DNA of 64,000 nucleotides from Psammoneis japonica. Lineage: Eukaryota. The stretch lies in the NCBI GenBank assembly GCA_008632985.1, contig QPGO01000115.1, positions 124,001 to 188,000 on the forward strand, in the 5' to 3' direction. The translations under genes were made by a program, and so were the position numbers. This document shows positions 1 to 56,577 of the stretch, piece after piece. Below the pieces are notes generated by a model. The model saw nothing but the letters and a program-made list of their open reading frames with translations. It made no database searches and was not told the DNA's origin. Each line of letters begins with the position of its first letter. Within the stretch, counting starts at the first letter, position 1.

Positions 1-760
1 GAGAGACAGAGACAGAGAGATCAGAGAGTGAGGGGGGGTGAAGCGAAGTGATGCACTTGAAAAGTGAGCATCAGCTGTGAGATCTTGGGGGAGAGAGAGA
101 AAAAGAGAGAGGCCAACAAGGTGGAGGGGGCAAGTCTCTCTTGGAGCATTGGGAGCGGCAACAGCAGGAGGGATGGCAGCTTCTTGCAGGCACTGGTGCA
201 GGGGTGTTTTGGTCATGAGTGCACAACAGAGGTGGTCATCAGAGCAGCGGCATTGGCAGTCAGAGCAACAGCCACAACAGCCAGTGTGAGAGGTGTGTTC
301 CCACTGTTGAGCCCTGTTGGTGGGGTTGGGGCTGGCTGTGTTGGGGGGGATGACTGTTCCTCTGACTGGCAGCAGCAGCGCTGACGTTGGAGTGACCCGG
401 GCAGTCGTGGCACCACTTCTTGTGGGAGGTGGAACAGAGCATGGCAGTCAGGGCAAAGTCAGGTGGGGCAGTTTCATCAACCTGTGTTTAGCACACACTT
501 TGGGCAATGTCATGAGAGCTGCTGCTGCATGACAAGCGCAGAGCAAAAAACAGTGGCACAAGAACAAAAAAAGTGGGCGGTGTGACAAGTGCCAGGAGGA
601 GCATTGTTGCAATGGTCCTGACAGCGGGTCAGAGGGGGGGGGGGGCTTGGGGACAAGGACATGCTGTCATGCAGCCATTGGGCCTGAGCCATGTCATGTT
701 AGTTGTTCTCTTGCGGCTTTTATTGTGTGCAGTTCCTCGAACGGATGGAATGCACTGTCA
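1..760. other. TpA-depleted degenerate block (runs off window start), GA-rich simple repeats at the start
   Basis: Only a few TA dinucleotides seen (e.g. ~488, ~700, ~720, all in TTA context); TG/CA-rich; ORFs nearly Tyr-free; normal composition resumes ~760. Confidence 0.7.
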
Positions 761-6188: not shown

Positions 6189-7949
6189 ATGATTCTGCTG
6201 TCCCTAGAGTGAGTACGCGCTGAAGGTCTACATGTTCTTTACTCTTTCGCCACAACCTCGATCTTTACATTAAAGTATTTTACCATAGATTTAGAATATA
6301 TTGCTATTATTATACTCTACTACAGCTTCATCAGATAGATATCTGTATCGAGCAACAACATTCTAGTGTGGAGAGTAACAGGAGTGACTCCCCGAGTTGG
6401 CATAAGTTAGCGTGTGGCTCACTGCGTCTGTGCGAGCGCCCTTCTCGCTCTTGGCTCTCACTTTTTCCTCTTCGTCCTCAGACCTCACCACACATTACAT
6501 GAGAACCTTCCATGTTACAAGTGTGGTGTGTCCTTCAAGAATGACTTGGTTGTGGCAATTGCATTTCTTTTTGCTGAGTGCACAGGTTCCCTGTTTTTTC
6601 ATCAGTTTACAGCTCTCTGTTGTGTGTCCAATTTGCAGCAGTTGCAACAACACCTGCAAACTTGATGATCATGCAGTGCTGCATGATGCACAAATTGGCA
6701 TGAGAGGGCAACTGACTGACAGTCTGGCAAGAGCACCAGCTTTTAAAATGTGATGCACTGCTCAGGGGCTTGATTCCTTCATTTGCTTTAAGTCTGGTGA
6801 GAAATGACAAAGAAATGCCACAAACTGACCAGAAACATGTGTCGAACAAAGTGTTGGCTTCTTGGCTTGGCTTGACATGAGTTGGTCTCTTGCAGTGTGG
6901 TCATCATGGATTTGAGACACATGTGCACAGACATTGGCAGATGACAAGGGTTGAATCGGTGTGGGTGCTGCTTTTTGAAATGATGGTTTGTGCCCTTTCA
7001 ATTTGGCTTGCGTCCACAGATGCTCTGGAACTTGCCAGAGGGTGCATGTCTCTTGCACAGACAGCAAGATCCAGGAGCATCCTCTGCAAAAAGCTTTGGG
7101 CATCCATTTCCAAGCACTTGACCGCAGGAGTCAACTCCAAAAATGATGTTGAGCCCATCTCTGCCATGACATGCAGAGCAACACTGTGGCAGGGTTCTGA
7201 AGCACTTCTTGAAGCCAGGATTCAATGATGGTTGAGTCCACAAAGCTTTGGTTTGAGGCAAAGCAATTGCACAGAACATCAAAAGACTTCATGTGCAGAC
7301 ACATCAAAAAAACACCAGTGCAAAGTGACCAAACATCAACGGCACTTGGGCACGTGTCTCTTGCCACTCAAAGACTTGGAAAGCTTCAAAAACTGCTTCC
7401 TCTTGCTTCAAGGTGCCAAGTGGGATCTGTGAGGTGTTTGCAACACCTTGTGGTGTGTCTTCATGACCTGTCAGCTCCATGCAGTGTCAACAAAAACCAA
7501 GGATCCAACTCAAGAGAACTTTGTTGGAGTGTCAGAGAAAATGGCAGAGGCTCACAACAAACACAGCCCAAATGACAGATTTGCTCTGCTTGCTTCAACA
7601 GCCTGCAAAAGAAAGGACACAAAAAAAGCAAAAGAGCTCAAGTCTCCACAGACAACAAGCAAGAGAGATGTGACAATGAGAAACAGAGTGAGTGTTGACA
7701 AGCACTTGACACACTGGACAGAGGAAATGTTCATCTTGCAAGAAAGAATAAAAAAAAACATTGGGCAGCTCCCCATTTCTCACAGCACAGTGCTGCCTTT
7801 GCCCTGTGTGCTGAAAATGAGCAAAAAAGCAGGCTGCAAAGATTGCTGTCAACAACAGACTATTTGTGAGTTGGCACATTGTGCTGTGAAACATTTGGCC
7901 ACACATGAGTTGTGTGCTGCTTTGTGAACACATGTGAGCTCTTCTCCAT

Positions 7950-10130
7950 CCACAAACAAAAGGGTTCATTCCAATCTTGCCACAAGGAGGAGAGGCTCAG
8001 CAAATGCCGCACACCATGCATGATGGTTTTTCTGAGTCTTTGTGTTGCACTTGGCAACATTTTGCAAAGCCGGCTCCTGAGCATGATTCTTGTGCCACAT
8101 GGGTTTGCCCAAGCTGGTGCACAATTGTGCCATTGTGTCTGTTTGACAGACTGGCTGCAACTGCCTTGCTGGGGCATGTGCAGTGCATGGCCCGTTTTTC
8201 AACAAAGCTGCCCACTCCAATTTGTCCATGAATTTTAAAATGCCAACATTGCAGTTGCTTTTCTTCTGTTTTCAAGGTTTGCTCACAAGACCTTGGAATC
8301 TTGTGCAACTTGGCATGGCGCAGCTCATTGTTGTCCCTCAGATGACTGTGGCAGGGGCCATCACCCTTTCACTTGCCCAAAGTGCTGGCAAGCAATGGCT
8401 CACACTTTTCAAGAATGGAGGGCAATTTGTGCTGCTGACATTTGTCCAAGCTTTTGGCATTTTCAGTGATGACTTGTTGCAAGTCTGCTGCCTGGCACCT
8501 GGCACCCAGGGCAGCTGTGATTTGATTGCTGTTGCTTTTCAGCCTTCCTGGCTCTTGGGTGCAGAGCACTGTTTTGCTTGCACAGCATCTGTGCTTTTCA
8601 TCATCATCACCTCACTGTTGGTTGTTGGCAACTTGATGATGGCTCATTTTTGGAGAATCCAGCACTGACTCTGCCAGTCTCCAAAATGTTGTGCCCAACA
8701 ATCATGGCTGCCACAATTTTGCCAAGCTTGCCATCATGCACCAGGTGGGCTGCACTTCCAGGATGATGACCATTTCAAACAACTCCAGAAGCTTGACTTA
8801 AATCTCACAGCACCAGCTCTCATCAAAAACAGGCCAGCAACCATTTTCTAGCCAGTCTTCTCAGTGGCACAAACCCTTCTGCCAGATTTTTTGCAGCTGT
8901 CTGCTGACATGCTGCTGACTCTGCTGTCTGACAAAGCTTTTGTCATTTTTGTTTTGCCCTCACCAAGCTTGGTTTTCAAGGCTGTGAGTGCTGGTGCTGG
9001 CACCACATGCTGCTGCTTGTGCCTTTTTCTTCCCATGACATGAGCATGATTGAAACTTGGCGGCAGATTGTGACAATCATTTTGTGACTGTGGTGTTGAC
9101 CCCCAAATCAACCACCATTGTCTTTGTCTTCAGAGTCACTCACTGGAGGTCACAAGTGGCTGCTTTAAAATTTGTTGAGCTCCTTGATGATTTTTTTGTT
9201 GCACTTGTTTTTCTGCACCTTGAGCACTTTCTGTCTTGGCTGCTGCGCCAGCAATGGCACCTGCTCTTGATCATCCTTTCTCTTTTTGTTTGACTGAGAG
9301 CACCCAGTCTTCAGCCCTGCTCTCTTGACCTGGTGCTTTGAGCTGCAGTGCTCTTTGGTTGAGTGTCTCTGCAATTGATGCTGCACAACATGTGTGTCAT
9401 TTGGCATTTTGCTTGCTGCGTGCAGTTTGTGGCAAGTGACTTGGGGCTGTCTTTTTCCCACCAGTCACACTTGCATGGAACCTTGGTGTTTAGGTTGATT
9501 TGTTAAAGCCACCTTCAGATCTTCAACTTGCTCAGTTCATGTGCAAAAAGTGAGTGGGTTGAAGTCCTGGAAAATCACATCCTTCTGCTGTGCATTTGGA
9601 GCTGTGCACTCAAACAAATCTGCCAGCTCATCATCTGGCAATGGCTCCAGATTGTTGCCTCCTTCAACTTTCAGTGGTGAAAAGTTTTTTGAGCAGCCAT
9701 TCAATTCAACAGCAATTGTGGCACAGCTCTGAGTTGTTTTCATTTCCGTGGGTGCTCTCACATGATTGTCCTCCCGGGAAAGATGCTCTGGTGTGCAGCT
9801 GGGTGCTGGTTTCTGCGTCAAACTCTGCCACCTTGTTGTTCAACATTTTGCATTCAGCCACAACATTCTGACCATGGATGATGCTGCACTCAGAGTTTCA
9901 CAGGAGGAAGAGCTTGCACACTCCATTGCTGGCATGCTCAAGCTTGTGCATCAGACTGTTGTCATCCATTGGCAAGTTGCACAGCTTGCACAACTGGTGC
10001 TTGCCCTTTTGTAATTTCTTCTTCTTGGGAAAACCACAGGGCAGTTGGGGGAGCAATCCTCTTCTTCACAGTGGGAGTTTTTGGCAGTTTAGAAAGCCCA
10101 GTTGATTTTGTCAGTTTCTTCACAGAAGGT
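7950..10130 (-). mobile_element. Degenerate Ty3/Gypsy LTR retrotransposon fragment (gag, protease, start of RT, possible integrase remnant)
   Basis: Gag-like DELADLFECTAPNAQQKDVIFQDFNP; protease-like KALSDSRVSS; pre-RT linker QQHKLPSILEKCEPLLASTLGK*KGDGPCHSHL...HAKLHKIPRSCEQTLKTE; DKLEWAA resembling the Gypsy SEWAAP; many stops and frameshifts. Confidence 0.65.
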
Positions 10131-10149
10131 TTTCATGCACACTTGCAAG

Positions 10150-11900
10150 AGCAACATTGCTGATGCTGTGCCTTGTGTGCCAAAAATCAAAAAGATGAGT
10201 GTCAAGCAGTTGCAAAGATTGCTGCCATTGGCAACTGTTCCTGAGTCTGCTTGCATTGCTGCAAAACAGTTGTTTGCATGAAATGTGCACACTCACCTCA
10301 TGCACACACACAACAAATGTGTCTTGATTCACAAATGAGGAGCTTTGCCTCAAGTTTGTCTTGTTGGCACTCACTGAACAATGCATGATCTGCAGCATTG
10401 TGTGTGGAACCTTCACTCACCACCAGGTGTGACTTTGGGGGCAAGTCAAGTGTCTGACCCTTGTGACACAAGTCACTTGCAGTTGACACACAGTTGTGTC
10501 AATGATGCATCTGCTCTTGACAAAATGAGTGCAAGTTTGAATGGGCTTGTGCAACACACACTTTTGGGTCATGCATCTCCCACTGTGGGAGCCCCACAAC
10601 AGAACATCTGACTGTGTGAACAGAAGACATTGCTGGCATCTGCCACGTGTCAGTGTGGTGCATGCTGCACTGCATCAAACAAGACATTTGCCAACTGGCA
10701 TTTGCCAGCTGCCAGCACAGCGCATGCTGCACCTTGTTGAGATGCAAGCACCACACTGACAGCCCAGCAGCAGGTTTTCTTGATTGCCACACATGCTGAG
10801 CTTTTTCAGGCAACAGCTCTGCAAAATGATGGCCCTTGGTCAACTCACTGTGTGCCCTCTTTCAAAGCCATCAACACAGAGAGTGGCTCTCAGTCACATG
10901 CCTTGGAGGCTTGGGGCTTGGAGGACATCACCTCCCAGCCACAGCTTGCAAAGAAGTTGAGAATGGCAGCCAAAGCAAAACTTCTCCCCACAGCCAAAGG
11001 GCAAGAGATTTTGATCTTCCCCAACCCTCATTTTGACCTTCTTTTAGATGCCAGGGATCTCTGCTCATTTCATTTCAATGATTGAATCTTACAACAGTGA
11101 GTGGCTTGGCCTGACACAAGCACCAATTCTTGTGCTTTGCTTCAACCACAGTGCTTTTTGACACCAACAAAAATTGAGTTTTGTGGTTCAAAAGGCAGGG
11201 GTGGAGCAGTGGTTGACTGAGCTGACACAATCACTTGAGCACAAAGAACAACAACATCTTTTTTCACACTGCACTCCATCCCTCTGCAAAGCAGATGGTG
11301 CAACAGCCAGTGGTGCAGCTTGTGTGGCAACACAGCACACAAAGTGTGCAGACTGCATTTTTTGCAGTTGTTGTGGAGCAGACAACAATTGAAGCTTTCT
11401 GCACAACATTCACAATGGTCCTTGAGCAATGCGAAGTGAAGGGTTCATGACAAGGACTTGACTTTGCAGCCTCTCTTGCTCACTGGCTAATTTTGTGACC
11501 CACCTGAGCACTTCTGAAAAATTCCAGCCTCAGCACTCAAAGAAAACATGAGCAACTGAGTTTGCATGTCAACATTTGCAAAATGTTTTGTGCAAGACAG
11601 AGTCAAGACTCCCTGATGCATGAGGGAAAAAGAAGTGAGGAAGAAGTGGGGTGCCAGAAGCAAGCTCATCAGCGATGCTGCTGGCTGTTGCAACAGCTGA
11701 CAACATCTCTGGCATGTGGCATTTGGTGGTCAAATGAGCATGGACCAAATGACATGATCAACACCCAGCATCAACAATGAAAGAGTGCCACAAATGCTGT
11801 GTGCCACTTTGGATGAGTGCAACACATGTCAAAAAGAACCCCTCTGAAAGACGAGGTTGGCACAAACCAGCTTTGCTGACCCTCACTCATCCAGCAGCTG
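10150..11900 (+). repeat. Copy B of a ~2 kb degenerate direct repeat
   Basis: Colinear with 12760-14690, e.g. TGTGCTTTGCTTCAACCACAG and GGGGTGGAGCAGTGGTTG in both; short related piece at ~7790-7940. Confidence 0.85.
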
Positions 11901-12759
11901 TGACAAAGATTAGCCAACAGCCACAACTGCCTCTCCAGTGATCATGCAGCTTGGATGGCCAGTGTCCTTGGCAGCCCTCCTGTCCTGCATGCAGCTTGTG
12001 GCAAGATGCACAAAGAACAGAGGCAATCTATTTTACACTGCTGTGCATCACTGCTTTGTGCAAGGTGAAGGTTGCAGCACAAGCAACAGATGCTGGCATG
12101 CAGCTTGTGTGGTGGCTGGTGTGCACAACAAAGTGCAGACCAACTGGTGGTGTGCTGGGAGAGTTTGTCAATCCAGGAGCAGGGTCCAGATGTGACAGCA
12201 CTTAAAATGTGGATTTCAGTTCTTCTCTCAAACCACAGCCCACCAAAGCACCAAGGGGTGCTGATGACTTCCACAAATGTTTGAAGATCCTCAAAAATCT
12301 TTTGACAAAATGCAAGATTGATGCTTCCCCAGTGCTGCAGGAAACATGGTTGTGTTGGAACATTGGGGTGTGAGTTGGTTTTTGTGAGACAGAGAATGTT
12401 GCAGCAAATGGCACACTGACAAACATTGATGACATGGCAAATTTACATCATTTGCAGCTCATGATGAGTTGTTGGTCTTGTGCTTGCTTTTCAGCTTCTG
12501 CACCCAGTTGACATGCACAGCAACAGCAGCAGCAGAAATGGGACTCTTGTGGTGCACAAGCCAAAGCAAGTTGGGGATTGGCAAAGCTGGCACACATTGG
12601 CCAGCAAGCCATGAAATCCCAACAGTTTTGCACATGGGTGGACTTGGCACCATTTTGTGAGTCCAGCTGAGCACAATTCTCATGACATGGGTCAGCCCAA
12701 ACTTTTTGCTGGGGCCCAAAAGCTCACTGCCTCACACATCAAATTGGAAGACAAGCATT

Positions 12760-14690
12760 TGGCAGCTGCAAAGATTGCCATTGTTGGTGATTGTGAAAGC
12801 TGTTTTTGAGTTGGCGCACATTGCTGTGAAATGTGAAAACTGTTTGTGAGTCAGCGCATGTTGCTGCAAAGCATTTGGTTGCATGAAATCTGCACTCACT
12901 GTTCACATGCTCTCATGTGCTGAACATCACAACATCTGTCAATGAGGAGCTTCTTTGCCCCAAGTTTGTTTTGGTGCTCAGTGAACACTGCACAGTGCAA
13001 ATCATTGTGTGCAGAGCCTTTGCTTGCCAGAGGTGAGAGACTGCATGGACAAGTCAAACATGCAATCCTTGTGATGTGGGGCACTTGCAGTTGACACACA
13101 GATGTGTCAACATGTCTGCTCACAGCAGAATGAGTGCACAAGTCTAAGTGGGCTTGTGAAATGCACACTTTTGAGTTGTGCATCTCCCACCACTGCTGGA
13201 ACCCCATGACACCAGACACATTGCCAGCATTTGCAAGTTGTCAATGCAATTTGTGCTGAGCCACAGCACACAAGACATTTGCTGGTGACTGCCATCTGTC
13301 AGCACAGCACATGCTGCACTTTGTTGAGATGCAAGCATCACACCAACAGCAGCAGAATTTTCTTTGCCACACATGCCAAGCTTCTTCAAGCAACAGCTCC
13401 ACAAATGAAGGCTCTTGGCCAACCTGCTCTCTTGGCCACAGACTCAGGGCTCAGGGTTTGGAGAAAGCATTCCCACAGGTTGTGAAGAAAATGAGAATGG
13501 CTGCCAAGTCAAAACATCTCCCAAAATGTGCAAGAGATTTTGATCTTCACAAACCCTCATTTTGACCTTTCACAAGGTGCCCTCTCTTGCAGATCATTGC
13601 CCTTTCTTTTTCTTGATGATTGAACCTCACAACAGCAAGTGTTGACTTGGTCTCTCCAGCGACACTGGTGCTGATTTTTGTGCTTTGCTTCAACCACAGC
13701 ACTTTTTGACCAGCACACTAGATTGATTTGCCAAGAGTTTCAGATCAAGTTTGGTGGTTCAAAACGTGGGGGTGGAGCAGTGGTTGGCTGAGTTGACACA
13801 GTGGCCCGTGCATGCTGAAAACAAGGGACTCTTTTTCACACTGCACATTGTCGCTCTGCAAGAGACATGGTGCAACAACCAGCAACACAGCTTGTGTGGC
13901 AACACTGTGTGCACAAAGTGCGCAAGCTGCATTTTTCATGGTTGTTGGAGCAGGTGGCAGTTCTGTTGGAACTTTGTGCACAACATTCACAGTGTGGCTG
14001 TTGAGCAACAATTTGCAGGTTGCAAAAGTGAGGGGTTCACAGCAAGAGCTTGATTTTGCAACCACTCTTGCTCTCTGGATTGTTTTGCCACCTTTGGCCT
14101 GTCATTCAACATTCCTTTTGAGCACTGTGTGCAAAATTCCAGCTGCTGTGTTCAAAGAGAATGAGCAGCTGAGTTTGCACTTCAGTGTGTTTCTTGCAAC
14201 ACAAGAAACAAGAAATGAGGCACATCTTTGTGCAAGACAAAGTCATGGCTGATTTGTGAGAGAGAAATGAGAACAAAGTGGAGTGCTGGAAGCAAGCTTG
14301 ATTGTGACACACTGGCTGTTGCAACAGCTGACAATGTCTCTGGCATTTGGCGATCTCAAAGTGGTCAAGTCAGCTGGCGAGTGAGCTGCTTGAAGTGAGG
14401 AGCGGGGGTTGCTTGTCCATTTTGATTGCAGAGACTGCAAGGATTTGTGCAAGGTTGAGCTGTTCAGTCCCAGTCTCCCAATTGTGACACAGAGCTCTCA
14501 TCCACATTTTTCACATGTCTCGCACCTTGTTGTTCAAGCCACAAGCAGCTGGTGCAACAAATCAAAGCCCGGCATCAACCACGAACAAAGAGTGCCACAA
14601 ATGCTGTGCACCTGAATCAGACAAGTGCAATGCATGCCAAGGAGAGTCCCTCTGAAAGATGAGAGGTTGGCTGCGACAACCTTGAGCGAT
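12760..14690 (+). repeat. Copy C of the ~2 kb degenerate direct repeat
   Basis: Colinear with 10150-11900; its 3' part (14230-14640) aligns with 14903-15310. Confidence 0.85.
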
Positions 14691-14708
14691 CCATGGCGCA
14701 AGAAGTCG

Positions 14709-14778
14709 ATTTTGCAACCTGCTCTGGCTCATTTTTGCAACCTGCTCTGGCCTCTGGCTCATTTATTTTGCAACCTGC
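14709..14778 (+). repeat. Short tandem repeat TTTTGCAACCTGC(TCTGGC) x3
   Basis: Directly visible; lies at the right boundary of the depleted block. Confidence 0.85.
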
Positions 14779-14902
14779 AATCTGTCGTTCAATAATCACT
14801 TTCAATGTTGTATACATATAATTTTATATACATTCAAAGAGAATGAATAATAAGATTTTTATTTCAAATCTTCAGAAATATAAGAGAATGCTCTATCTTC
14901 AC

Positions 14903-15310
14903 GCAAGACCCAGTCGTGACTGATTTGTGAGAGGGAGAAGTGGAACGAAGCGGGTCTCACAGTCAAGTGGGAGCAAGTTCGATTATAGCGACGCTGACTG
15001 TTATAACTAACAACGTCTCTGGCGTTTAGTGTTCAGAACCACTAATTGAGTAAATACACTGCTTGAAGTGAGTAGGGATTGCTTGTCTGTTTTGATTGTA
15101 GAAACCACGAGGATAAGTGCAAGTAGATTGAACTGTTCCATCACAATTTCAATCGTGACAACTATGCTAGTTCACGTTTCACTTTCATGACTCACTCATC
15201 TTGTTGTTCAAAACGCGTGATCAGCTGCAACAAATCGATACCCGGCATCAATCATGAAGGAGTGCCGCAAGCACCATTTACCCAACTTGAACGATTGCGA
15301 TGCATGCCAA
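14903..15310 (+). repeat. TA/CG-retaining partial copy (D) of the same repeat, overlapping the start of the downstream ORF
   Basis: Aligns with 14230-14640 and 11590-11830. Confidence 0.85.
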
Positions 15311-16879
15311 GCTTGGGTGGCCAGTATAGCTTATAACAAGCGTCAAAAGACCACTCGTCATTCTGAACACATCGTTCCACACCATACGGATGAAAGTGGT
15401 CAGAAGAATCACGATGAAAAACATCGTAGCTGTGCTCAGCTACTAGTACAAGCTGAACTAGGCGTCCAAGCTACACGAAGCGTTGAAAGTCAGAAATCCG
15501 ATGATTCCGTCGATCAGTATTTGAGGAAGGCCGAGATAGATACGGACGAATCATCGTTTGCTAGTGAGAGGAAAGGAGATGATGGAGATGATTCCTCTTT
15601 TAGCTCTGAAGAAAAGAATGACGATGACCCTGGTTCCGTTGCTACGGCCGTTAAGGAGGCCTCGACGTCTAACACCGCACTGCCTACTTTAGACGATGCA
15701 GGTTTGAAGGAACCCGAGGCTAATGACAGCAAAGCCTCAGGATCGAAAACGATTCCAGACAACTGCGTCGACCTGTCCTGTACAGACGTTGAACAGCAGA
15801 ATGCAATCACGAAGAAAGAGCTCGAAATTCGAAAGACTGTGTTCACGGAATCACAGATTAGTGATGGGAAAGACATAATGAACGAGGAGCAGTACGAAAG
15901 TATGGTGAAAGAGTTGCGTGCCTTTGCAAAAGAAGAAGGTTTAGCTGAGCCCAAATTTCTGCTCAATTCAAAAGAAGTGAAAAAGATCCAAGACAGCCAT
16001 GTCACGCTTGGACATCCCGGCATGGGGAGAAACCGGGATCACACTAGAGCTACCGAGATGATGTTTGACTACCTAAAGCAGAGGCCCCATCGAGAGGGAA
16101 TGAAACAAACCAGCATCGGAAGAAACACGAAAAAGGAGGATAAATTCAGTCCGTTTGAGACTTGGATGAGAAAGGAAAAAGAGAGATATGGGATTCAGGA
16201 GGATATAGTTTTTTTGAGGAAGAAGTACTCACTATCCGAAAGAAGTCAGGAGACAGAGGAATGGCCTGAAAACAAAATCGAGCCTGGGACAGAGGGAATA
16301 TATTTCTGGTCGGATCCTAAACACCCTGAGTTTGGTATCGCGACTCGCCTTGCGTTGGTAACTCACCGATTTGACATACAGCGTCAAATCTCGGATCAGG
16401 CACCAGGACAGACTATTGCGCAAGAGCCTCCAACTGAAGCACTGGCGAGGACTAGTCCTATTGAAACTAACGACGAATCAAGTTTCGGAGGCGACGGCTC
16501 GACAATGGAGATGGAGGACGAAGGGAAGCAGCCGATTTTGGAAGACGAGGACAAGCGGTCAAGTAATACCGATTTCAAAGAGAACTCTCGGAGCACAGCG
16601 GATGGTGGTGCGTCCTTGCACGAGAACAACGGGAATCATTGCATCGAGGTTGAAACCAACTACGGTAGACATGAAGACGAACGGAAAATGCGAGCTTGGC
16701 TGGATGTCCACCAGCTCCCGCAGTCCACGGCAGATATCTTGTTGGAACTGGGTGCTCGATGCGTCGATGACGTTTTGATGTTGGTGCAGGAAATGCCGGA
16801 GCATTTGTCGAATTTTCGTCCTCTGGATCTGCTGAAACTCAACAGAGCTGTGACTCAGCGCATGATGGGTTCACCGTAA
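15254..16879 (+). CDS. Unknown acidic protein with C-terminal SAM-like domain
   Basis: 541-aa ORF with normal composition; C-terminal MRAWLDVHQLPQSTADILLELGARCVDDVLML...LDLLKLNRAV resembles a SAM fold. Confidence 0.55.
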   Translation: MKECRKHHLPNLNDCDACQAWVASIAYNKRQKTTRHSEHIVPHHTDESGQKNHDEKHRSCAQLLVQAELGVQATRSVESQKSDDSVDQYLRKAEIDTDESSFASERKGDDGDDSSFSSEEKNDDDPGSVATAVKEASTSNTALPTLDDAGLKEPEANDSKASGSKTIPDNCVDLSCTDVEQQNAITKKELEIRKTVFTESQISDGKDIMNEEQYESMVKELRAFAKEEGLAEPKFLLNSKEVKKIQDSHVTLGHPGMGRNRDHTRATEMMFDYLKQRPHREGMKQTSIGRNTKKEDKFSPFETWMRKEKERYGIQEDIVFLRKKYSLSERSQETEEWPENKIEPGTEGIYFWSDPKHPEFGIATRLALVTHRFDIQRQISDQAPGQTIAQEPPTEALARTSPIETNDESSFGGDGSTMEMEDEGKQPILEDEDKRSSNTDFKENSRSTADGGASLHENNGNHCIEVETNYGRHEDERKMRAWLDVHQLPQSTADILLELGARCVDDVLMLVQEMPEHLSNFRPLDLLKLNRAVTQRMMGSP

Positions 16880-41499: not shown

Positions 41500-41504
41500 G
41501 TTTC

Positions 41505-42510
41505 AACGTTTTGGAAGTGGTACCTTGCAAATTGTGGCGTGCTATTGGAGGGAAGCTACTGTAGTGTCTCTGGTCTCTGGTGACACAAGCCTTGTCGCGA
41601 TCTTCGAGTTGTTGGCAACTGCAACAAGAGATCTCGGATCTCGGGTTTCGTTTGAACTGCAACTGTATCTCTGGTGACGTGAGTCGTGCATTACGTCATT
41701 CGTGATTGGGTCGCGGAGCCTCGACAGGTCGCCAACCGCCCGACCATGACGCAACCCCGACGGGCCACACCTCGCAACTGCGTAAGAATTTGCATTATAA
41801 ACGAATGTGTTGTCAGAATGGTGACAACTGAAGTGAAATGGACACAAGCAAAGTTGACTTTTTCTGGCACCTCCCATGACTGCGAGCAGCCAGTGTCGTG
41901 CCTTGCTGCTGTTGTGCCGCGCTTGATGTCGACACATTTCTCACACAGTTCATCCTGTTGTTGATTGCCCTCATGCAGGACTCTGTCACAGATGGCAACT
42001 AAATCTTCCCTGGCATGAAATTCTGGCACTCTGTCCACCGGCCAGGGGGTGCTTTGCCTCTTCTTGTGCCAAACAAGATCTCATCTACAAAATGTCTCTT
42101 TCTCTTTTCTTGTGCACACAAGGGTGAAAACAACCAGCTCACATGAAGCTCACTTCTTGCAAGGTTGACCACAATGTCTGTGGGTGATCTGTCAATGAAA
42201 GAGTTGCCTGAACCTGCAGCCCTCACATGCCATCTGATTTCTTGTTGCCTGACAAGGCACAAGCTTGTTGCTTGTGCTCTGCAGCAGAGCAGCCAGGAGC
42301 GCTCTCCAACAAGAGAGCAGTGTGCATGACAGCCCCTTCCCAACAATGGCTCAAGAACCCCTCAAGCTGGAATGCTGCCAACAACAAAAAATGTGCTGTG
42401 TGTGTGTCGCTGTGCCATGCTGGGACAACCAGGCAGGAGGGTGTCTCATCGTCTCAGGTGCCGCAGCTGCACCAGCGTGGCAAACTTTGAGCTGCTCCAC
42501 AAACAACAAA
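41505..42510 (+). repeat. Left copy of direct repeat (Lhcf upstream region), interrupted by ~440 bp extra sequence
   Basis: 41505-41840 and 42283-42510 align with 55913-56445, e.g. TTGGCAACTGCAACAAGAGAT, GAATGTGTTGTCAGAAT, CCCCTCAAGCTGG. Confidence 0.85.
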
Positions 42511-44329
42511 CCACCTTTTCATCTTTGCTGAGAAATCACTTTTCAAACAAGAAGCAAGCAAAACAACACTGCACTTGTGCAAGTGGCCTGACCCGCTCTC
42601 ACAAATTGTTGCTGCAGCAGGTGCCCAGCTTTTTTGTCACAAGCGATGGTTGTTTGTTGAAAAATTGTCAATGTGGTTGCTCCCAGCAAAAGAAGAGAAA
42701 TTGCACATTGCACCAGCCAAATGACAGCACTGGTTGACAAAGTGAGTGTTTCTGCAAAGCTTGTGACTGAGTGCACCAAAACAAAACTGCCAAAAATTGT
42801 GCAGACCCCCTCACTTTTTTCCATGCCAAGATTGGTCACTTCTCTTGAGCTGTTTTCAAAGCAAATGGAGTGCATGTGACATTTGCTTTGGGTGGTTCAA
42901 CAATGCATCAATGCAGCTGAGTGAAAGGGGGGGGGGTTGACAGCAAACAGGAAAAAAATCTTCCTCCCTCACTCAAACCAAAGACGGCCATGATTCCATC
43001 CTTTCTTGGGCAAAGCAGAGGCTTTCACACTCTGCTCTCCTGCTCTTGCTCTGGTGGAGGGAGTGGAGCACTCATTGCCACAGAGAGAACAAGCATGTGG
43101 AAGGAATCACAGCGTTTGCTTGTTCATGTTTAATTGACCTCATAAATTGTGCAAAAAAATGCATCAATTCATGAGCTCAATTTCCAAACAAAAATGCCCC
43201 TCTGTTTTGAACCTCATTTTTTTATTTTCTGTGTCCTTCATCACCATGCCATGAGCTTGATCACCACTTTTGGGGTGCACTCCCAGCCTTGCCGATTGGT
43301 GGCAAAAGGAGACAGGTTGATGAGATCAAAATGAAATGAAATAAAATGAAATGAGGTGAAGGAGGATGAGGTGGATTGTGGCAATCCAAATGAGACATGT
43401 TGGCAATCAGATTGGTCCAACAAAAACAATCAAATGCTTGATCATAAAAACTCATGCAAGAAATGCATGAAACACAAATGCACAAATGAACACCAAGTGA
43501 CACCAACAACTGTGCTGGTGTGTGTGTCCATGGTGATTGAAGCAAATTCTTTGCAGCATGCGGTGAGTCAAGCTGCGCGCATTTCTGTGCAGAACGGCAT
43601 GTTGCATTTCTGATTTTTTTCTCAATGTCATCAAAAGACACTCCTCTCTTTGTTCAAATGACAGGACCTCAGATTGACAATGCCAACTCACTGGAAGAAG
43701 GCTCCTGATGTGTGCAGATGCCAGCTGTGTTGGGGGGGTGGCAAGCATTCTCTGCTGGATTCATGCACTGCAAAAGGCTGGAACCTGGCACAAGTGCTGT
43801 GCAACAGCTCTCAATGAGCTCTCCTGCTGGGTCACAAGACGCTGTAGAGCATCTCTCAACTGCTTGCTTTTGGTGCCCAAAACAGTCTTACAATTTTCCC
43901 TTTTTGACATTTTGTTCACCCCTTCCACCCAGTTCTTCAAGGCACAGCACGCACCACTCTTCTCTCTGCACCCCGGCTCTTGCCCACCCCTCTCTGGCTT
44001 TCTTTTGCTTGTTGTTCTTGCTCTGCCTTTTGTTGCAGCCACTGGTGCTGTTGCCAGACGCTCTGTTTCTGCACAAGCTCCTTTTCTGCATGTTGCACTT
44101 TGCTTCACATGTTGTTCCTTGTCCTTGAGAGGAGCTGCCTTTGGCATGGTGACAGGCGCTTGTGCAGTTGTCAGTTCTCTCCCCACTTTAACATCCAGGT
44201 CACTTTTGCAAGCTGACGACTGACTCTCGAACTCCCACTTTGCTTGAGTTGAGTTGCTCAAAACCTGCTGCCACAAAAAATGCCAAAACCTTGCACAGGC
44301 TGCAAAGATTGACAGGATGATGTCTCTGT

Positions 44330-44700
44330 GGCAAAAGAAGCGCAAATTTCCCCAGTTTCAAGAGTTGGGAATGGACGTGTGTGACATCAACAACAAGATT
44401 TGCAGAGACAACAGCAAGTTTATGACAGAGTGTGTCGACAACAACACAAACATGCTCTTTGCATGCCCGCCCCAATTGGGCAAGACAACGCTCCTGTCGC
44501 TGGCAGAGCTCCTCCTCAGCAACACAGAAACCGCTCCTGCCGGGCTAGAATCACACACACCAGATGATGTTGAGAATTCCTGGCATGTGGTTTCCATTGG
44601 TTTCAGAGATGTTGGGTTTGCCGGCGGCCGAAGGAGCGTGGGAAGAGCAGGTGCCAGCGCAGTCGATAAAAAATTCACAACACAGTCCAGCTTCGTGTCT
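44330..44700 (+). pseudogene. Degenerate AAA-ATPase-like (P-loop) gene fragment
   Basis: ICRDNSKF...LFACPPQLGKTTLLS resembles the YxDxT..F.RPRRFGKS motif of the AAA-ATPase-like family. Confidence 0.45.
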
Positions 44701-46404
44701 TGAGTTTCCTGTCAATGCACACAGGCACAAAAAAGCATTTTGAGACGAGTTTGAATTTGTTGGGGGGTTCAATGTACGACATGGATGCAGGAGAAATGAT
44801 CCGTTTGCTGTCTGAATCAATTGCACACGTGCATTTGAGAGTGATCCACTGTCTGCACAGGAGTGACCCTCTCCACTGATGCCCCCCCCCNCTTCTCCTG
44901 CACACACACACACACACACACACTGGGAGAATCAAAAGCCTGGTAAAAACAGGATTGAAGATCTTCTGGTGCAAGAGAGAAGTGGTGAGAGTCATGACTG
45001 CCAGATGGACAGACAGCAAAACAGAAACAATGTGTCCATTTTTGCGTCCGACACCATGCAGTCATCCACTCGTTAAACCAATCAATTGCATCGCCAACAA
45101 TTGACAGACTGGGAGATTGCTCAGAGCATGAGTGGGCAGCAAATCGGGAGGTCTGCCGGGATGATGCCAGAGTGCACTGTCGGGAGGCCGTCCAGACCCA
45201 GTCCAATCCAAGAGGAAATCAGGTGGGTGACTGGAGCAGCACCAATTTGGCAGCAGCAAGTTGCCAGAGAGCAGCCAAGGTGACAGCTGACAACAACTCC
45301 AAGCAGTGCAACCCCCCCACAATGGGAGGCTTGCAACATTGGCAGGGTTGAGGCCAGCAGAATCCGAGACAATTGACTTCCCAGAAAAGTCAACAGATTC
45401 ATTTGCCTTGTTCGTGGTGTGCAGAGAAGCCATCTGCATGTGGTGCACAGATGGAAGCTTGTGCCGTGCAACAATTTGATGAGCATCAAGGGAGTGCATT
45501 TTGATTGAACCAATTGCTTGTTCACAATGCACACTGTTGCTGCTCGGTCAACAGCAACACCAGCTTTCTTGTGCTCAATTGGCTTGCCAAGTTTGTCCAA
45601 AGCAATCTTAAAAACAGCCAATGGGTCAGTCTTGACAATTCTCAGAAAAAGAACAAGGGTCAACTGGTGGAGTGGTCACCAACAGAGTGGCAGCATGGGT
45701 GGGGGCATCAACTTGGCATGAGAAATTCTGGGCCCACGTGCATCCGTGGCTGGACGAGGTGGTGACAGCCTTCTGGGAGCATTGGAAGCATTGGAGGCTG
45801 GAATGTGGGCAAGTTCCAGGTCAATGGTGGTGGTGGCAGCAGATGGAGTTGTTGCTGTTGGGTGCAACTCAATGACAGGGCAAGTTGTGTCATGTGCAGT
45901 GGCAATCGCGGCGGATGGAGCAGATGTGGCTGAGGGTCCGCATGGGGTGTCGGCTGCAGCTGCAATCAGCAAATTGCCATCTTGAGCTGGTGCCTGGGAC
46001 AGAGCTGCCTCAACGATAATTTTGCTCGCCAGAATGACACCGTCGTCAAATGGGTGCCATTCACGGGGGCCATCACAATGTTTCATTGCGCTCAAAGAAA
46101 TCAACTGCACACGGGGCAGTTGATGTTGGATCTTTGATGGCGCACATCACGCAGGATTGCTGCGCAAGCAGAGTGTGTGCCATGCCACACGCGAAACGTT
46201 GGTTGATGATGCCAACAAAAGCGATGAGAGGAGAATGATGATGAGTGCACCGTTTGCGCCGATGGAGCGAAAGTGTTTGCATTGAAAATGCTCACTGCCG
46301 GTGTCGACAATGACGTGCTGAAGGTGTTTTGTTGTTTTGCGATGTGGCATGGCCCCTCCTCGCACTGAGCCAAAGCGAGGCTCACAACCTGAGAGTGATG
46401 CACT

Positions 46405-49400
46405 GTGTCATTTAGTCTTGGTGCCAGAACCCCGGGACTGATCCCTGGTTTTTGAAAATGCGGGTTTGAACCCCAAAATGAAAATGCGGGATTGAAACCC
46501 GGGTTTTTATTCACGCAGCTCGCAGTGCTTTTTCTGCATAATTTTGCCATTTCTTAGAACCCAATGTGACTTTGCTTCCCGGTTCTCATGGAAAATAGAT
46601 CACTTGATCCACTGCATGGCTGCTGCTGCTTGCAATGTTGAACAAAGAATTTAACATTTTATGTGGTGTTGCTGTCCTGCTGTTCAACAATGAGACTTTT
46701 GATGTGATTTGCATTCCATCTCTTCACCGCGATTGATGGTGGTGTCCAATCAGTCTTGCGTTTGTTCAAAGCAGCTGAGTGTCTTCCCTGCCAAGCCCAT
46801 GCAACAGTGCATCATGACAGTCAAGGAAACAGGTCTTTTGCTGCTTGCACCTTGGTTGGCAGGGAAGTGCAATGGTTTCCCACACAGGTCGCAACTCAAG
46901 TGCGAGTCTGCCCCGCACCAAACACAGACCCTTGGATGCTTGTGGCTGGCAGACACCGCATCAAAGTGACAACATAAATGTGGCACACTGTGACATGGAA
47001 GAGATTCATTTCCACCCTGCTGAGCGTGTTGGCGCATTGTTCTAATGTCACAAAATTGTCAGCTGTCGTCGTTTGTTCCAAAGCCGCTCTTCGTTGATGG
47101 TTTTGTTGCATTGTGACTCGCATTGCGGAGTCACCATGGCACAGACGTGCTTTGGGGTGACACTGCAGCATTTGTCTTGAGAGTTGGTCTCGGAACTCCC
47201 AGTGACCCACTGGACTGTCATCTTTCCAAGACAAGTCCAACCCACCCTCTGCCACTTCCAAACAAATGTCACATGCAATGACAACAGCCATGGCCTTGCC
47301 TTGGTTCACAGCAGAATGCCAACACTTCCAAGAACGACAGAACATCTTTGCATTTTTGATGCAATGATCCATTGAATCAATTCATGAGCAAGATGAAAGA
47401 TGCAGATCACGGGCTTCATTCATCTTGATTGCCCAGTGTTGCTTGCTCTCGTTTCTGCCCCTTTCCTGACACCTCACATGTTTGTCACACTCGTTGAGGG
47501 CATTCACAGCAGCAATGTTGCACGACAAGGTTGATTGAAATGAGCAAAGCACACGTTGGCATCCCTCAGCACTGCGTGTGGGCACCACAGTCTTGACAGC
47601 AACAATCGCATCATTGAACCTTGCTGCTTTCGATCTTGCATCCGATGGTGTTTGTTTTTTCTGAAAGCACTTCCCTGGCACACCCGAAGGGAGCCGATCC
47701 CTTCAACGTGCAAATGTGGCCGCATGGCCATTTTCTCCAATCCAGCCTGAACTGCAGTCAGCGTCAAAGCAGTTGTCACATGTTGCGTGTGGCTTTCCTT
47801 GGAACATCTTCTTGGGTCCGGCGTCATCACCCATTCTGCCATGATCCACCATTTCGCCTGCTTGTTCCAAGATCATGTGAATTTTCGTCGGGCCCATGGC
47901 ACCCCATCCATCTGTCCTTGGGTGCAATTTGTGTCGGTGAACACAAGCCCGAGGTTGGATCTGGTGCACACCCGACATGATCACTGTCTGACCACCCTTG
48001 GTGATGCCAGGCTTTCCAGCCATGCGACCGGCAATCCCGCCACCAGCTTCACCACAACCCGCATGGCCCCAAGTGGTTTCATCACCACATTGATCCAACT
48101 CTGCATGGTGTGTCATGCGCTGACATTGTGAACTGTTGTGCCGCGAATGTCGTGTCACACTTGCAGGCCGGGTTGCACCCAGCTTCTCCTCTTCTGGGGG
48201 ATGTCATGTTGTTGCATGGCTTCAGTGCTCACTTCATTTGAAGCCAATGTGAATGACAAATTGATGAGGACACATCTGAGTCACAGTTGGATCCATCAGC
48301 CATCCACCTGCGGTGAATGGCTCCATCACCACTGCCACCCTTGATGTCATCTCGGACAATCACTCCATCAAATCTGACAAGCTCCTGGATGCTCACAAGT
48401 TTGAACTGGTGTCCATGCAATGAGCATGGCTTCAACTCTCATGCGGCACAAAATTTGAACATGTTTCTACTTCACTGTAGAACGACTTTCTGGGGTCTGA
48501 GTTGACACCCGAATGTGCAGCATCACACATTGGTGGAATCAATTGACAAAAAACAAAGCATCCCGATTTTTCATCCACTCAGCATTCATTCCCAATGATC
48601 GCAACATGTTTGCATCCAATGATCCTTTCCTCATTGCTGGAAAGAGGTTGCCTTTTGATGCACCCGATCTGTTTGGCATTGACAACATCAAATCCTTGTC
48701 AGCAACATCATCACCAGACATTGACCTGTCCCATCCTGACAAAAGAACTCCCATTCATGGAAAATTCTCTTCCCTTCTGAATTCTCAGGCACTGGTGCGG
48801 TGCCAGTCGGCAAGCTGTGATGAATGTGCCAATGGGAATCTTTCGAAAATGACCCGTGACATAAAAAGCATGAAATGATTGGTGGACGCCTGCAGAATCT
48901 GCACGTTTTTGTGCTGAGGCTGTTGTGTTCACACAATTTGTGCAAAAACAGACTTGACTGTCATCGGGTCAGGTGCATTTTTGCAAATGCATTGAAGAAA
49001 AATGCACCTGATCAGAAAACAGTCAAGTCCATTTTTTTCGCAAAGTTAAAATTCACTGAGGACAGACAGACAGACTTTTCAACAATTGTCTTGGTGCTGT
49101 TCCACACATTTCCACGTAAATGACTCTAAAGTGCGAAAGATTGCCATTGCTTCTTCTCCCCTCTTGCCTCAAACTGAGGGCAGAAAGCACATCTGCTCCA
49201 CCCTCCGGGATTGTCCACATTGGCAAATGGTGGCTCCCCCTTGTCTGCCTTCATTTCAGGCAGCTGCCACCCTTCAGGAGTGCCTGGAACATTCAACTGC
49301 ACTGACGGGTCACGCTCACCAAGGTGCAGCAGCAAGGCAGCATGGTCATTGTCAGCCACAATCTGTTCATCACTGTCTTGGTCCACAACACGCGATCTCA

Positions 49401-50033
49401 ACCGTTCCAAATGGGCTTCAGCACGAGCTCCATCAATGTCGCTGACATTCTCATGCTCTTCGTCACTGTCACCACCATCTCCCATCTCTGTCTCATCCTC
49501 AAGGACATGCCTGGGGTTCACCAGTTGGTCCTCCACAGCTGCGGGACCAAAAGTCTGTGGCCGTCATGTGCAGTGGTGGCCCTGGTTGTTGTGCTGCCAT
49601 TCCACCAAACGCTTCATTGGTGCTTGCAGAGGTGGCCATCTTTGTCACGACGTTGATGCTCTGATTTGCTGAGCGTGTTGCTTTGATGACAATGGTGGTG
49701 GCTGCGGTTGTTGTGGTTTTTTTTTTGCAGTCATCGGCTTTTCAACGCAGACTGAGGTGACATTTCTGCGGTGGTGCGTCACTGCAAAAAACCTGGGATT
49801 CAGCCCCCGAACACCCCGGGTTTCAAGCCCACTCTGGTGACGACAACAAAATGCCAATGTAACTCCAGCCATTTCACATGTTATTTGAAGGGTGAACAGT
49901 CATTGGCATCTAGTCAAAACCTTCTGAGTGATGATCATGTTTGTTTGATCTTTCCATTTGATGGCCAATGGCTGCCAGTGGAAAACCCAGGACTGAATCC
50001 CGGGTTTTTCGGGGCACCCAGACTAAACGACAC
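46405..50033 (-). mobile_element. piggyBac-like DNA transposon with terminal inverted repeats and degenerate DDD transposase (~46750-49735)
   Basis: TIR GTGTCATTTAGTCTTGGTGCC (46405) vs GGCACCCAGACTAAACGACAC (ends 50033); catalytic-like GDETTW, TCDNCF, IDSMDH; C-terminal Cys-rich CVWCG...CDLCG; in-frame stops and frameshifts. Confidence 0.8.
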
Positions 50034-50187
50034 CAGGAATGACCCTCTCCACTCTCCACAAGCTCTCCACTCTAGCCAGTCTAACAATTTCAATGCTGGC
50101 AAACCACTTCAGTCACCCCTCTGTCTTTCCCACAATGAGGCTCTCTCATTTTCTCCTTGATTTGCTCTTCCACCCGCTCATCATAAA

Positions 50188-51681
50188 ATGGATGGAACTT
50201 GCGAAAGTTTCTGATTTGACGGGTCAAGAGGCTTGCACCCATGTGAAGATGGCTCCGGGCGACAGTCCAGAGGTGCATGGCTAAGTCTTTCACATGCCTG
50301 CTGGAATGGTGTTGGAAATTGCAAACTCATGTCCAAAGCTCAGGCGTGGACGATTGCCAACCACTGCAGCGCAGTTTCCCTTGCGAGTCAGCAACTGGTG
50401 TGAGTGGTTGGATGGTCACTCGAGTTGGGCTGTGCCAGAAGATTGCCGGCGATTGATCATGACGACAAGATGGTCCAGGTGACATGAGTGCACACATGCA
50501 GAGAATCATGGCCAGCAATTTCTACAAGCACTCGTTGGACCATCCGAAAACTCAGCTGTCAAAAGTGTTTGCTCACCCATCCTTCACAAGTTGAAGTCAT
50601 TTCAGGATGCAGAAACCTGTCAGACGCTGGGAGACAAACTCTTTCTCCTGAAAGCAGAACTGCAAAAAATTCACACCAGCCCTGCAAAAGAGAACCTCGA
50701 TCGCTTGATTGACGATTCTCCTGACATTCCAATGGTTTGGCGCCTGCTCACAGTCTTTGCTGACACCAGACTCGATGCCCTTCACGATCAAGTTCTCGCT
50801 CCCACCATGGGCTGGAGACATCACTGTCATGGATGTCACTTCATCTGCCCCACGAACAGTGCCATGTTTGGACCACAGGACATTTCTGCCATGGACATGA
50901 TGCATCTGCACAATGAAGGTGAGCATCTCTTGCCATCCAAAAAGTGCAATGTTCGCTCTCTTTTGCACAAAAAGGGTGACAGACTTGGATGTGTTTACGA
51001 CGGCGGTGACCATTGGAGGCATGTTGTCATGGTCCTGGACGTCCTTGACAAGGGAGCTGAACTGAAGGCTCGAGCATGAAAGAAGAAGCCATCCGGACAA
51101 GCTGGACCCAACGCCTTGGTGCTGACGAGACTGTGAATGTCAAGGGAAACTGTCTCATTTTGGGAGAAATCAATTGTCCTCCTGAGGACAGCAGAGGCCC
51201 ACCAGAAGTTGGAGAATGCCATGCATTCCTTCACAAAGGGAAGAACTTTGCTGTTTCTAACCACAACAGTGTCAATTGGAATGACCACGGTGTCACCAAA
51301 CCATGCGAGTTTGACCTTGAAGCCCATCAGCGGCGCTTCCAACAAGCTGTGGGATCATGCAAGAGCAGCTCAAGTGGGCATTTGCAGTTCATGACTCCAA
51401 TGCAACCTGGATTCTTGGGCTTCAAGGCTGGTTTCCTGATGGGCAAATCTGGCAAGAAGGGCCGCGTTGTGCTTGAAGACCATCAAGGTCCGTGTTCCGT
51501 GGAAGTCATTGGCAAGTCATGCCCCAGCGGCACTTGTGCAAATTGTGGCAAACAGGAAGGAAGCAATGCTGCTCCAAAGCTGTTTGATTGCAGTCCTTGG
51601 TGCAAATCTGCTGCCTGCTGTGGGAGATCTTGCCAAAGGGATCATTGGAAAGAGCACAAGAAGGAATGCAACGCCAAATGA
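50188..51681 (+). pseudogene. Degenerate MYND zinc-finger protein gene
   Basis: CANCGK...CSPWCKSAACCGRSCQRDHWKEHKKEC; upstream frame broken by stops. Confidence 0.7.
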
Positions 51682-54600: not shown

Positions 54601-55912
54601 TCAGCAACTTGGTCCATTTTTGTCTGCAAGCTCCTCTGTGTTGTCTCACTCTGCAGAAGCCACAAGGGATGCATCCACCAAAGATTCATCCTTGTCGTTC
54701 GATCCAGTGTTCAACAAAGGCATGATTGCGGGCTCACCAAGTGTTGCATTGCATGAATCTTGTCCGCTCTTCAACAAACCTCTGTGATGCTTTTTATCTC
54801 CCGTCAAATCATCTTCCTCGTCCTTGCAGAAGCATTCTTCGTCACCATTGACACTGGTCAGCATGGTCAGGGCCTTGCTCTCCTCTGAACAATGGCCTCC
54901 ATTGTTTCCATGGTTTGATCTGCAAGACTTGATGCAACACATCCATGTTGACCCCACCTTGCAGGAATGTCAGAACTGATGCCAGGCAATGCACAGATGA
55001 AAGGAGACAAGCCATTGTGGCTGACACATCGCCACAGGCATCTTCCTCATCTGCTGGTCCGTTTCTGTGGATTCCTCCATGCGCTCCCCCATGTGAGCAG
55101 CATTGCTCTGATGGACTGCAGTGCAATCACATGGAATGGCCAAGAAACGTCAAAAATGCTTCTGACACAAAATTGACAACAAACCATGAATGATCCTTGA
55201 CATCCAGCCCTGCATCTCTTCAAATTGACAGTCCAAAAAGGTTGTTGGGACAAGGTTGCACCCCTTTACATTTTCTTTCATTTTTCCTCAAGGAAGCACT
55301 CTTCAATTGAGGTTGCATCACATGGAGCACTGAGCATTGCCAGACCAACAGCAGATGGGTTCCAGTCCTAGCTGGAGGTGGGACTCCGTGTGACATTGGG
55401 CCCGCAGAATTCTGCGTGCAAGCTCCGCAGCAAATTTATGCTGCAATGAAAATGTGTGTGATCGCCAAAACAGAAAAAGAGACAATTTTACGAACGCATC
55501 TCCTCCTTCACACAGCACTTGTGGCACATCATTGACAGCTTGCCCGGGCACATTCTTCAGACATTAAAGAACATGCCCAGTGTGTTTTCATTGGCTTCGC
55601 AAAACAGGGAGCATGAAACAATTTCGTAGAATGTCACACGTAGAAATGTGCATGCACGACATACGACGCGATCCAAAAAACTGTTCGATGTCACAGTTCA
55701 GCAGCACGAGGTCCCACCCAGAGCTGGAACGCGTCAGCATTAAAAAAATCATCCGGGCCTGCTGTGGAGAAATGCATCAGATGCATCCTCTGTGGGCCTT
55801 GCCTTCAAGGCTGTTGTGTTCATGTCATTCAAACACATTGTTGTGAGCTGCTGAGGAACAGCAGATTGCATGAGGCGCGGGTTGTGTTGAACCAACGAGT
55901 TTGCGATTCATC

Positions 55913-56445: not shown

Positions 56446-56577
56446 ATGTTTCCACCCCCCAAGATGTCTGCACGCCCCTCCGTTTTGAACCTCCTTTTTT
56501 TCCGCTTTCCGCGTCACCATGAGCACCGCAAGGCGCCCATAAAATTTCCAGTCTCCAGTCAAATTATTGATCGCATA

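Follow-up and report, generated by a model that had tools for sequence, protein, structure and literature searches.

A dead gene duplicate stripped of TpA and CpG steps beside its spared, transcribed twin in the diatom Psammoneis japonica

Introduction

The window analyzed here, a stretch of 64,000 nucleotides from the diatom Psammoneis japonica (GenBank assembly GCA_008632985.1, contig QPGO01000115.1, positions 124,001 to 188,000, forward strand), holds two neighboring paralogous stretches. One of them, copy D, contains TA and CG dinucleotides, whereas the other, copy C, carries mostly TG or CA in their place. The locus raises three questions: which state is ancestral, what process leads from one to the other, and how that process is aimed. 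We addressed them using the window, the assembly (91.4 Mb in 597 contigs) and two sequencing runs. In keeping with a diatom, the best named hits of a housekeeping protein from the assembly belong to Ditylum, Eucampia and Seminavis (65-69%). X1 is a short-read DNA run. X2, for which no library type is recorded, was read as RNA from its three GT..AG joints and was used as contigs of that single run.

Results

Copy C lacks the TA and CG steps of copy D

All five sequence pairs quoted from the two copies in a first-pass annotation are present in the sequence; one of them, GTTATAAC/GTTGCAAC, sits at an ambiguous 3-nt indel and reads as TA>CA under either placement. The ranges quoted there are real, but homology reaches further upstream, pairing 14727-15311 with 14048-14641. 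As quoted, the copies lie 254 bp apart, close to the ~250 bp given; the true repeat spacing is ~670-680 bp.

Aligning D (14895-15311) with C (14224-14641) gave 72% identity over 399 ungapped columns, with 82 transitions and 30 transversions. None of 15 TA steps is kept (5 TG, 4 CA, 6 other) and only 1 of 18 CG steps is kept (12 CA, 5 TG), in agreement with the claim that both steps face TG or CA at site after site. TA sites also change more than other steps, since 0/15 are kept versus 151/285 of the dinucleotides other than TA, CG, CA and TG (Fisher p=1.9e-5). Over the longer stretch of D (14764-15311), 0/27 TA and 1/19 CG steps are kept, including 0/12 aligned TA in its upstream part (14764..15018). 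Across three scoring schemes, 16-19 of the 27 TA steps become CA or TG in C; nine of the 27 stand opposite other steps, which is not surprising in an old, 30% diverged pair.

At 10 of 81 CA/TG sites, one copy reads CA where the other reads TG, so D is not the exact ancestor of C. The TA and CG o/e of D (0.53 and 0.93) resemble the genic background (0.59 and 0.98), and its CA and TG o/e (1.39 and 1.37) exceed that background. Given the swaps and the raised CA/TG values, D itself probably lost some TA or CG, or C cycled further. Thus, the description of the pair as mutated and unmutated fits C and is too strong for D.

Copy D is the start of a spliced gene

The features of the spared copy are as follows.

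14764..15018, plus strand: upstream/promoter part of copy D, TA-rich and spared (20 TA, o/e 0.77)
15019..15067, plus strand: 5' non-coding exon of copy D (X2 record 11, in which 49 letters precede the joint; 15019 is the start of the X2 RNA contig, not a mapped transcription start site)
15068..15224, plus strand: intron of copy D, 157 nt, GT..AG (joint 15067>15225 in X2, absent in X1)
15254..16879, plus strand: open reading frame of gene D, 541 aa, covered by X2

X2 covers D, the 541-aa frame and the flanking genes, and its depth is 0 in 19/19 bins from 6368 to 14613. Given the joint, the cover of the frame and the empty block, D (14764-15311) comprises the promoter region of a spliced gene together with its 5' non-coding exon, its intron and its first codons, a feature beyond what the first-pass annotation saw. 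The first TA past the block lies at 14764, ~255 bp upstream of the RNA contig start, and is followed by 13 TA within 14793-14881. Only 85 bp separate D from its mutated twin C.

The frame of gene D gave no match in Pfam or in the Atlas, and no homologue among proteins of 297-947 aa. A DNA search for an outgroup returned only the two window copies, and four weak partial paralogs of gene D lie elsewhere in the genome. Both runs contain an expressed relative of its 3' part (16484-16859), 88% identical with 44 differences, which was not found in the assembly and is a diverged allele or an unassembled paralog. In addition, a ~70-bp direct repeat at 6496-6563 and 17474-17544, its right copy within an exon of a spliced transcript, brackets the block and gene D and is possibly the scar of a duplication or insertion.

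Copies B and C are dead duplicates in tandem units

Two tandem units precede gene D.

10233..11865, plus strand: tandem unit 1 (upstream piece and copy B), eroded; matches 12838-14676
11400..11865, plus strand: copy B, dead copy of the promoter and 5' end, ~190 nt including the intron missing (three-way alignment)
12400..12625, no strand: dispersed-repeat fragment, parts of which match 38 other places
12728..14676, plus strand: tandem unit 2 (upstream piece and copy C), eroded (repeat comparison)
14048..14641, plus strand: copy C, dead promoter, 5' exon, intron and first ~20 codons (alignment to D)

The units, each ~1.7-1.9 kb, end in B and C, and 53/342 CA/TG steps are swapped between them. 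B (11585-11835) has no TA and a single CG, and C (14224-14641) has no TA. In C, the splice sites GTGAG and CAG are still recognizable and ACG stands opposite the start codon. As promoter, both splice sites with the intron and ~20 codons are retained, C is a DNA duplicate. Apart from unit 1 and some short pieces, the search turned up no other copy of the upstream piece. Among the 38 places matching the dispersed repeat, 13 were examined, all of them within or at TA/CG-low DNA.

TA-low domains with sharp edges

Three TA-low blocks reach into the window.

1..699, no strand: end of a third TA-low block, entering from upstream (dinucleotide profile)
6517..14763, no strand: TA/CG-depleted block of 8.2 kb containing B and C (o/e: TA 0.04, CG 0.08, CA 1.98, TG 1.88)
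41799..56539, no strand: second TA-low block (TA o/e 0.07, CG 0.39), same process with CG loss less advanced

Domains were measured over 258 kb of the 271-kb contig C111, which contains the window; TA-low domains make up 48% of these 258 kb. Pooled o/e values inside them are 0.06 (TA), 0.40 (CG), 1.74 (CA) and 1.72 (TG), compared with 0.59, 0.98, 1.14 and 1.14 outside, and some domains combine TA o/e <0.1 with CG at 0.7-0.9. The step in TA at the edges is sharp, partly by construction, as edges were set on TA. Within these TA-defined edges, CG density climbs over the final 200 bp, as would be seen if domains spread outward and TA were lost before CG. A local tblastn of the flanking frames against the C111 domains found short relics only. 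That the one RNA-like run, in contigs only, covers the genes flanking the 8.2-kb block and not the block itself would be compatible with transcriptionally silent targets, and the domains are putative methylated heterochromatin.

X1 differs from the block at 11911 (TA>CA), 13661 (CG>CA), 12485 (within a multi-copy repeat) and four small indels; both clean substitutions (11911 and 13661) fall on the 61 TA/CG steps left in the block. Since these short reads otherwise agree, the block is no long-read calling artefact, with the proviso that X1 may be the source of the assembly, so that the agreement may not be independent. This proviso is what speaks for an artefact, one of a group of explanations for the removal of TA, with selection and biased gene conversion. 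We regard the group as very unlikely: individual copies carry their own fixed TG or CA outcomes, GC content is unchanged in the blocks (0.47-0.49), adenines outside TA barely move, and transversions are equal within and outside blocks.

Further features were observed in the window. A MYND finger match at 51076-51678, within the second TA-low block, is likely a host-gene or element relic. Duplicate pairs at 40108-40968 and 61546-63232, 85% and 77% identical, lie outside the blocks with normal TA and are un-erased. A further tandem or dispersed duplicate pairs 41502-41839 with 55907-56175.

TA and CG are the ancestral states

The window itself is a poor judge of direction, as the B/C comparison proposed in the first-pass annotation has little power. 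Of 24 columns in which D has TA and both B and C are ungapped, only 8 show CA or TG in both, 2 of them discordant, compared with a baseline of 5/34 at columns where D has CA or TG. These few sites and the swaps between D and C would allow the reverse direction, in which CA/TG is ancestral and D gained TA in a RIP-like manner. Beyond the window, three sets of evidence bear on this.

First, we sampled 25 copies, out of at least 40 listed, of a young Copia family (RVT_2, 91-93% identity). Among them, 31 columns show TA, TG and CA each in at least two copies and no CG. C>T changes at CA amount to only 0.2% in these copies, within the 0.2-0.7% range of cytosine transitions outside CG. Second, four TA-eroded C5-methyltransferase gene copies (on contigs C297 and C301) have His, His, Cys and Cys at the Tyr of a G-Y-Q motif, which is kept in three intact paralogs and in mammalian DNMT1. 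At a second invariant Tyr, Cys is present in 3/3 eroded copies covering it; a third invariant Tyr is Phe in 4/4 eroded copies, which is no TA change. Third, contigs C317 and C41 were called allele-like from 96-99.5% identity and collinearity, and may instead be a recent segmental duplication. Over a 600-bp stretch at a domain edge, one of their copies has lost 12/13 TA steps (8 CA, 4 TG; 1 deleted) with 35/37 CG kept, and 14/17 substitutions are A>G or T>C.

These results support TA and CG as the ancestral states and the in-block copy as the mutated one, as the first-pass annotation had proposed. The reverse direction is scarcely credible: it would need D to gain 17 CG as well, D sits at the genic background in TA and CG while the block is the outlier, and the outgroup Tyr>His/Cys changes together with the three-state columns refute it at the genome level. 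We consider the existence and direction of the process nearly certain.

The two contigs are collinear and nearly identical, haplotigs or recent duplicates, and usable for allele-level spectra. Between C317:50100-50700 and C41:~511600-512200, the domain edge is shifted by ~500 bp.

Two processes act in the domains

The Copia family, represented by a locus at 206284-212181 of C111, has at least 40 copies, and 25/25 of those examined lack 74-89% of their TA sites. Rates were taken after masking poorly aligned flanks, leaving 96 TA-class sites (113 unmasked, with inflated backgrounds); as the copies share ancestry, the counts are of non-independent events. At TA, 446/2245 are kept (20%), with 740 TG and 1059 CA; at CG, 6280/7337 are kept (86%) and 14% converted, yielding a TA/CG loss hazard ratio of 10.4. 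Transversion states at the 96 TA sites number 11/2259. Adenine transitions after A, C and G reach 1.2%, 0.7% and 0.9%, compared with 80% of TA converted. The 14% decay (C>T/G>A) at Copia CG, against 0.2-0.7% at other C, is paralleled by 17/18 CG lost between D and C.

Given the roughly tenfold faster loss of TA and the domains in which TA is nearly gone with most CG in place, two processes are at work: a fast, TpA-specific A:T>G:C mutation and a ~tenfold slower CpG decay. The single TA and CG spectrum of the first-pass annotation therefore stands insofar as both steps are lost, and divides into two processes of different rates.

Changes occur on both strands without strand coordination, and the outcomes of adjacent sites within a Copia copy are uncorrelated (r -0.03 to 0.04). 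TA retention depends on the flanking bases, with 9% for RTAY, 16% for mixed flanks and 32% for YTAR. Similarly, 0 ATAT survive in the C111 domains versus 109 TTAA, or 0 (ATAT) to 60 (TTAA) per 1000 CA/TG steps. A direct strand test favored TAY (733 versus 366 events), though strand of the element is a confounder at 49/55 sites; the other 6 sites favored TAY as well (87 versus 45). Outcomes at the palindrome GTAC are skewed 138:253. C317 and C41 were compared over 10,936 bp of block and 11,378 bp outside, where the DNA is normal: the block has 225 transitions versus 51, 42 transversions versus 38, and 25 CA<>TG doubles versus 0; thus, old domains keep turning over between CA and TG.

The heavy mutation of Copia, with its sense-strand excess of CA over TG, might point to RNA or cDNA intermediates edited by an ADAR/APOBEC-like enzyme and reverse-transcribed before insertion, the more so as ADAR prefers 5'UAG (PMC10661471). 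TAG, however, is a disfavored context in this genome, and changes affect both strands without coordination. Editing before insertion is contradicted for copy C, a DNA duplicate with its promoter and intron, and for the C317 edge, an allele-like single-copy stretch mutated in place. We regard this route as exceedingly unlikely.

Candidate chemistries

We give even odds to the fast process being adenine deamination in chromosomal DNA, guided by silencing and carried out by a putative enzyme of the TadA/ADAT type. In this scheme, the 5' end of a host gene would have been duplicated in tandem, with the extra copies B and C in a silent domain and the transcribed D outside. Silent domains would be mutated on the chromosome by two processes. 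In the first, fast and acting site by site on either strand, adenine at TpA would be converted to hypoxanthine by a TadA/ADAT-family enzyme and read as G, giving TG or CA; it would prefer T-A-pyrimidine and leak weakly to other adenines. The second would be a slower decay of CG to TG or CA, as from 5-methylcytosine deamination. Both would end at TG/CA, and newly arisen TA or CG would be removed again, producing the CA/TG swapping of old blocks. Enzymatic adenine deamination in DNA is a putative chemistry, and sequence alone cannot tell whether the attacked base would be A or the T paired with it. Chromatin state, not repeat pairing, is likely what aims the process. It is only likely, since D would equally have stayed intact if silencing of gene D were selected against, which could explain the spared copy without a chromatin-reading step.

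The genome contains an intact-looking ADAT2-like gene on C26 (with HAE, PCxxC and the Asn that Mettrop et al. name), an intact-looking TadA-like gene on C38, and two ADAT1/ADAR-like genes (C40 and C79). Both ADAT2 and TadA have a housekeeping role in tRNA editing, and none of the candidate genes is singled out. Genome matches to PF00383 (10), PF14437 (5) and PF02137 (4) included no expanded or fused DNA-deaminase candidate. A nucleoside-deaminase domain at C79:87006-90176 shares one open frame with a further downstream region, which we take, from its motif, to resemble a 2-oxoglutarate/Fe(II) oxygenase; the deaminase part also occurs on C151, as a TA-eroded copy.

Modification enzymes typically have dinucleotide-exact, strand-symmetric targets. 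The TpA target would therefore also suit a methylase or oxidase that marks A or T at TpA within silent domains, followed by mispairing or by excision and C-inserting (Rev1-type) bypass. The genome has 29 C5-methyltransferase matches and five Y-family polymerase loci in keeping with such a route. On the other hand, no TET/JBP match was detected in the genome, eukaryotic 6mA is known at ApT rather than TpA, and abasic bypass usually leaves more transversions than the few counted at TA. On balance we consider a modified base unlikely. DNMT5 was not specifically recognized among the 20 of these 29 matches that were examined, and intact-looking DNMT1/DNMT4-like genes, assigned by likeness, lie on C10, C59 and C34. 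TA-eroded DNMT1/DNMT4-like copies are amplified on C297, C301 and C28, and no un-eroded direct parent of them was found.

Alternatively, TA loss could be a by-product of CpG methylation, arising from error-prone repair synthesis by a polymerase eta/iota-like enzyme in patches at T:G mismatches left by 5mC deamination. TA and CG are indeed lost in common domains, their per-copy retention is correlated (Spearman 0.50, p=0.012), Y-family polymerases are present, and outside TA the adenines that change most are those preceded by A. Polymerase eta, however, strikes AA substantially (WA signature), and here the AA hazard is only ~1.5% of the per-base TA hazard. Moreover, TA disappears ten times faster than CG, also where CG is intact, and no strand-coordinated clusters are seen. 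TA loss hardly depends on the distance to the nearest CG (rho 0.10, p=0.30) or on a mutated CG alongside (TA kept 101/224 versus 220/431), both being weak tests since repaired sites are traceless. Taken together, a repair by-product appears unlikely, and deamination of adenine is the reading we carry forward.

Discussion

As far as our searches reach, A>G hypermutation directed at TpA has been published once before, in a 2026 preprint on a rhizarian alga. Its main text describes how, in Bigelowiella natans, NCLDV and virophage DNA integrated in the genome is hypermutated at TpA (Mettrop et al., 10.64898/2026.01.13.699255): two viral inserts receive 231/302 new mutations, almost without exception TpA>TpG/CpA, with Rho 0.45 in the NCLDV region and 124 clusters; the de novo rate rises ~1000-fold in some lines only, and ADAT2 is proposed as the enzyme. 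The diatom process resembles this account in A:T>G:C transitions nearly confined to TpA with both outcomes, and in local domains low in TpA and high in CpA and TpG. The B. natans targets are described as silent, and here the RNA-like contigs are empty over the block. The differences are that our host is a stramenopile, that erosion is nearly saturated (o/e 0.06) in domains making up 48% of 258 kb, and that the targets, which include Copia elements, a host gene start (B and C) and methyltransferase gene copies, go beyond viral or foreign DNA. CpG decay is co-located here and flanking bases matter, whereas 'CpG', 'diatom' and 'trinucleotide' occur 0 times in the main text of the preprint. The B. 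natans rate was measured de novo; that of the diatom is deduced from copies. The two processes work alike, and the diatom case is set apart by the struck host-gene duplicates, the near-complete erosion and the CpG decay.

RIP of ascomycetes, a premeiotic process, converts CpA to TpA, introduces local transitions at a preferred dinucleotide and strikes both members of a duplication. The diatom process likewise hypermutates repeated DNA locally by transitions at a preferred dinucleotide, and this genome has several DNMT1/DNMT4-like genes; the diatom P. tricornutum lacks DNMT4. According to one study, RID is related to diatom DNMT4 (PMC9998398). Here, in contrast to RIP, TA is lost rather than gained, C>T at CA is rare, no strand-coordinated runs are seen, and D keeps background TA and CG next to its mutated twin. 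RIP is ruled out by the opposite chemistry and the one spared copy, for which survival by selection is possible. The same source describes DNMT5a-dependent CG methylation of diatom transposon islands (PMC9998398). Silent repeat islands in an unmethylated gene-rich genome resemble our domains, and the CG>TG/CA decay fits them, whereas TA is here removed as well, about ten times faster.

Deamination of A34 in tRNA by TadA/ADAT2-3 and the action of engineered adenine base editors would give the same outcome, with A turned into I and I being read as G. In tRNA, A34 invariably follows U, from which a TpA rule would result. For TadA, the target is 5'ACG in one review (PMC10661471). Natural TadA/ADAT2-3 enzymes act on tRNA, and a native genome-wide activity on DNA is here only proposed. 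Among the records listed in our literature search, which drew mostly on sources other than subscription journals, none reported TpA erasure in diatoms. A metagenome scan with one Copia frame returned just one locus, a weak match of 37% over 51 aa with normal TA and CG, too little to bear on taxonomic spread.

A broader proposal, which we advance tentatively and regard as possible though on the doubtful side, is that the diatom has a dedicated native pathway for editing adenine in DNA, and that silent chromatin, not repeat pairing or foreign origin, is its guide. It would permanently rewrite about half of this diatom's genome, spread from the edges of domains in advance of CpG decay, destroy new gene duplicates and transposons, and be shared with Rhizaria. 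The SAR lineage would then possess its own A>G equivalent of RIP, built around a natural adenine editor of double-strand DNA.

In summary, copy D beside C and B shows the states before and after the action of a mutation process that is rare and locally aimed. The locus is also a test of targeting, with a transcribed gene start next to its dead twin; as the twin alone was rewritten, neither repetition nor foreign origin appears to be the signal. Within such blocks, divergence dates, Tyr-poor 'ORFs' and annotation are misleading. In this diatom, TpA hypermutation has reached saturation across much of the DNA examined, and CRISPR tools exist for its group. If an adenine deaminase acts on its chromosomal DNA, this would be a natural base editor and a new chemistry of genome defence.
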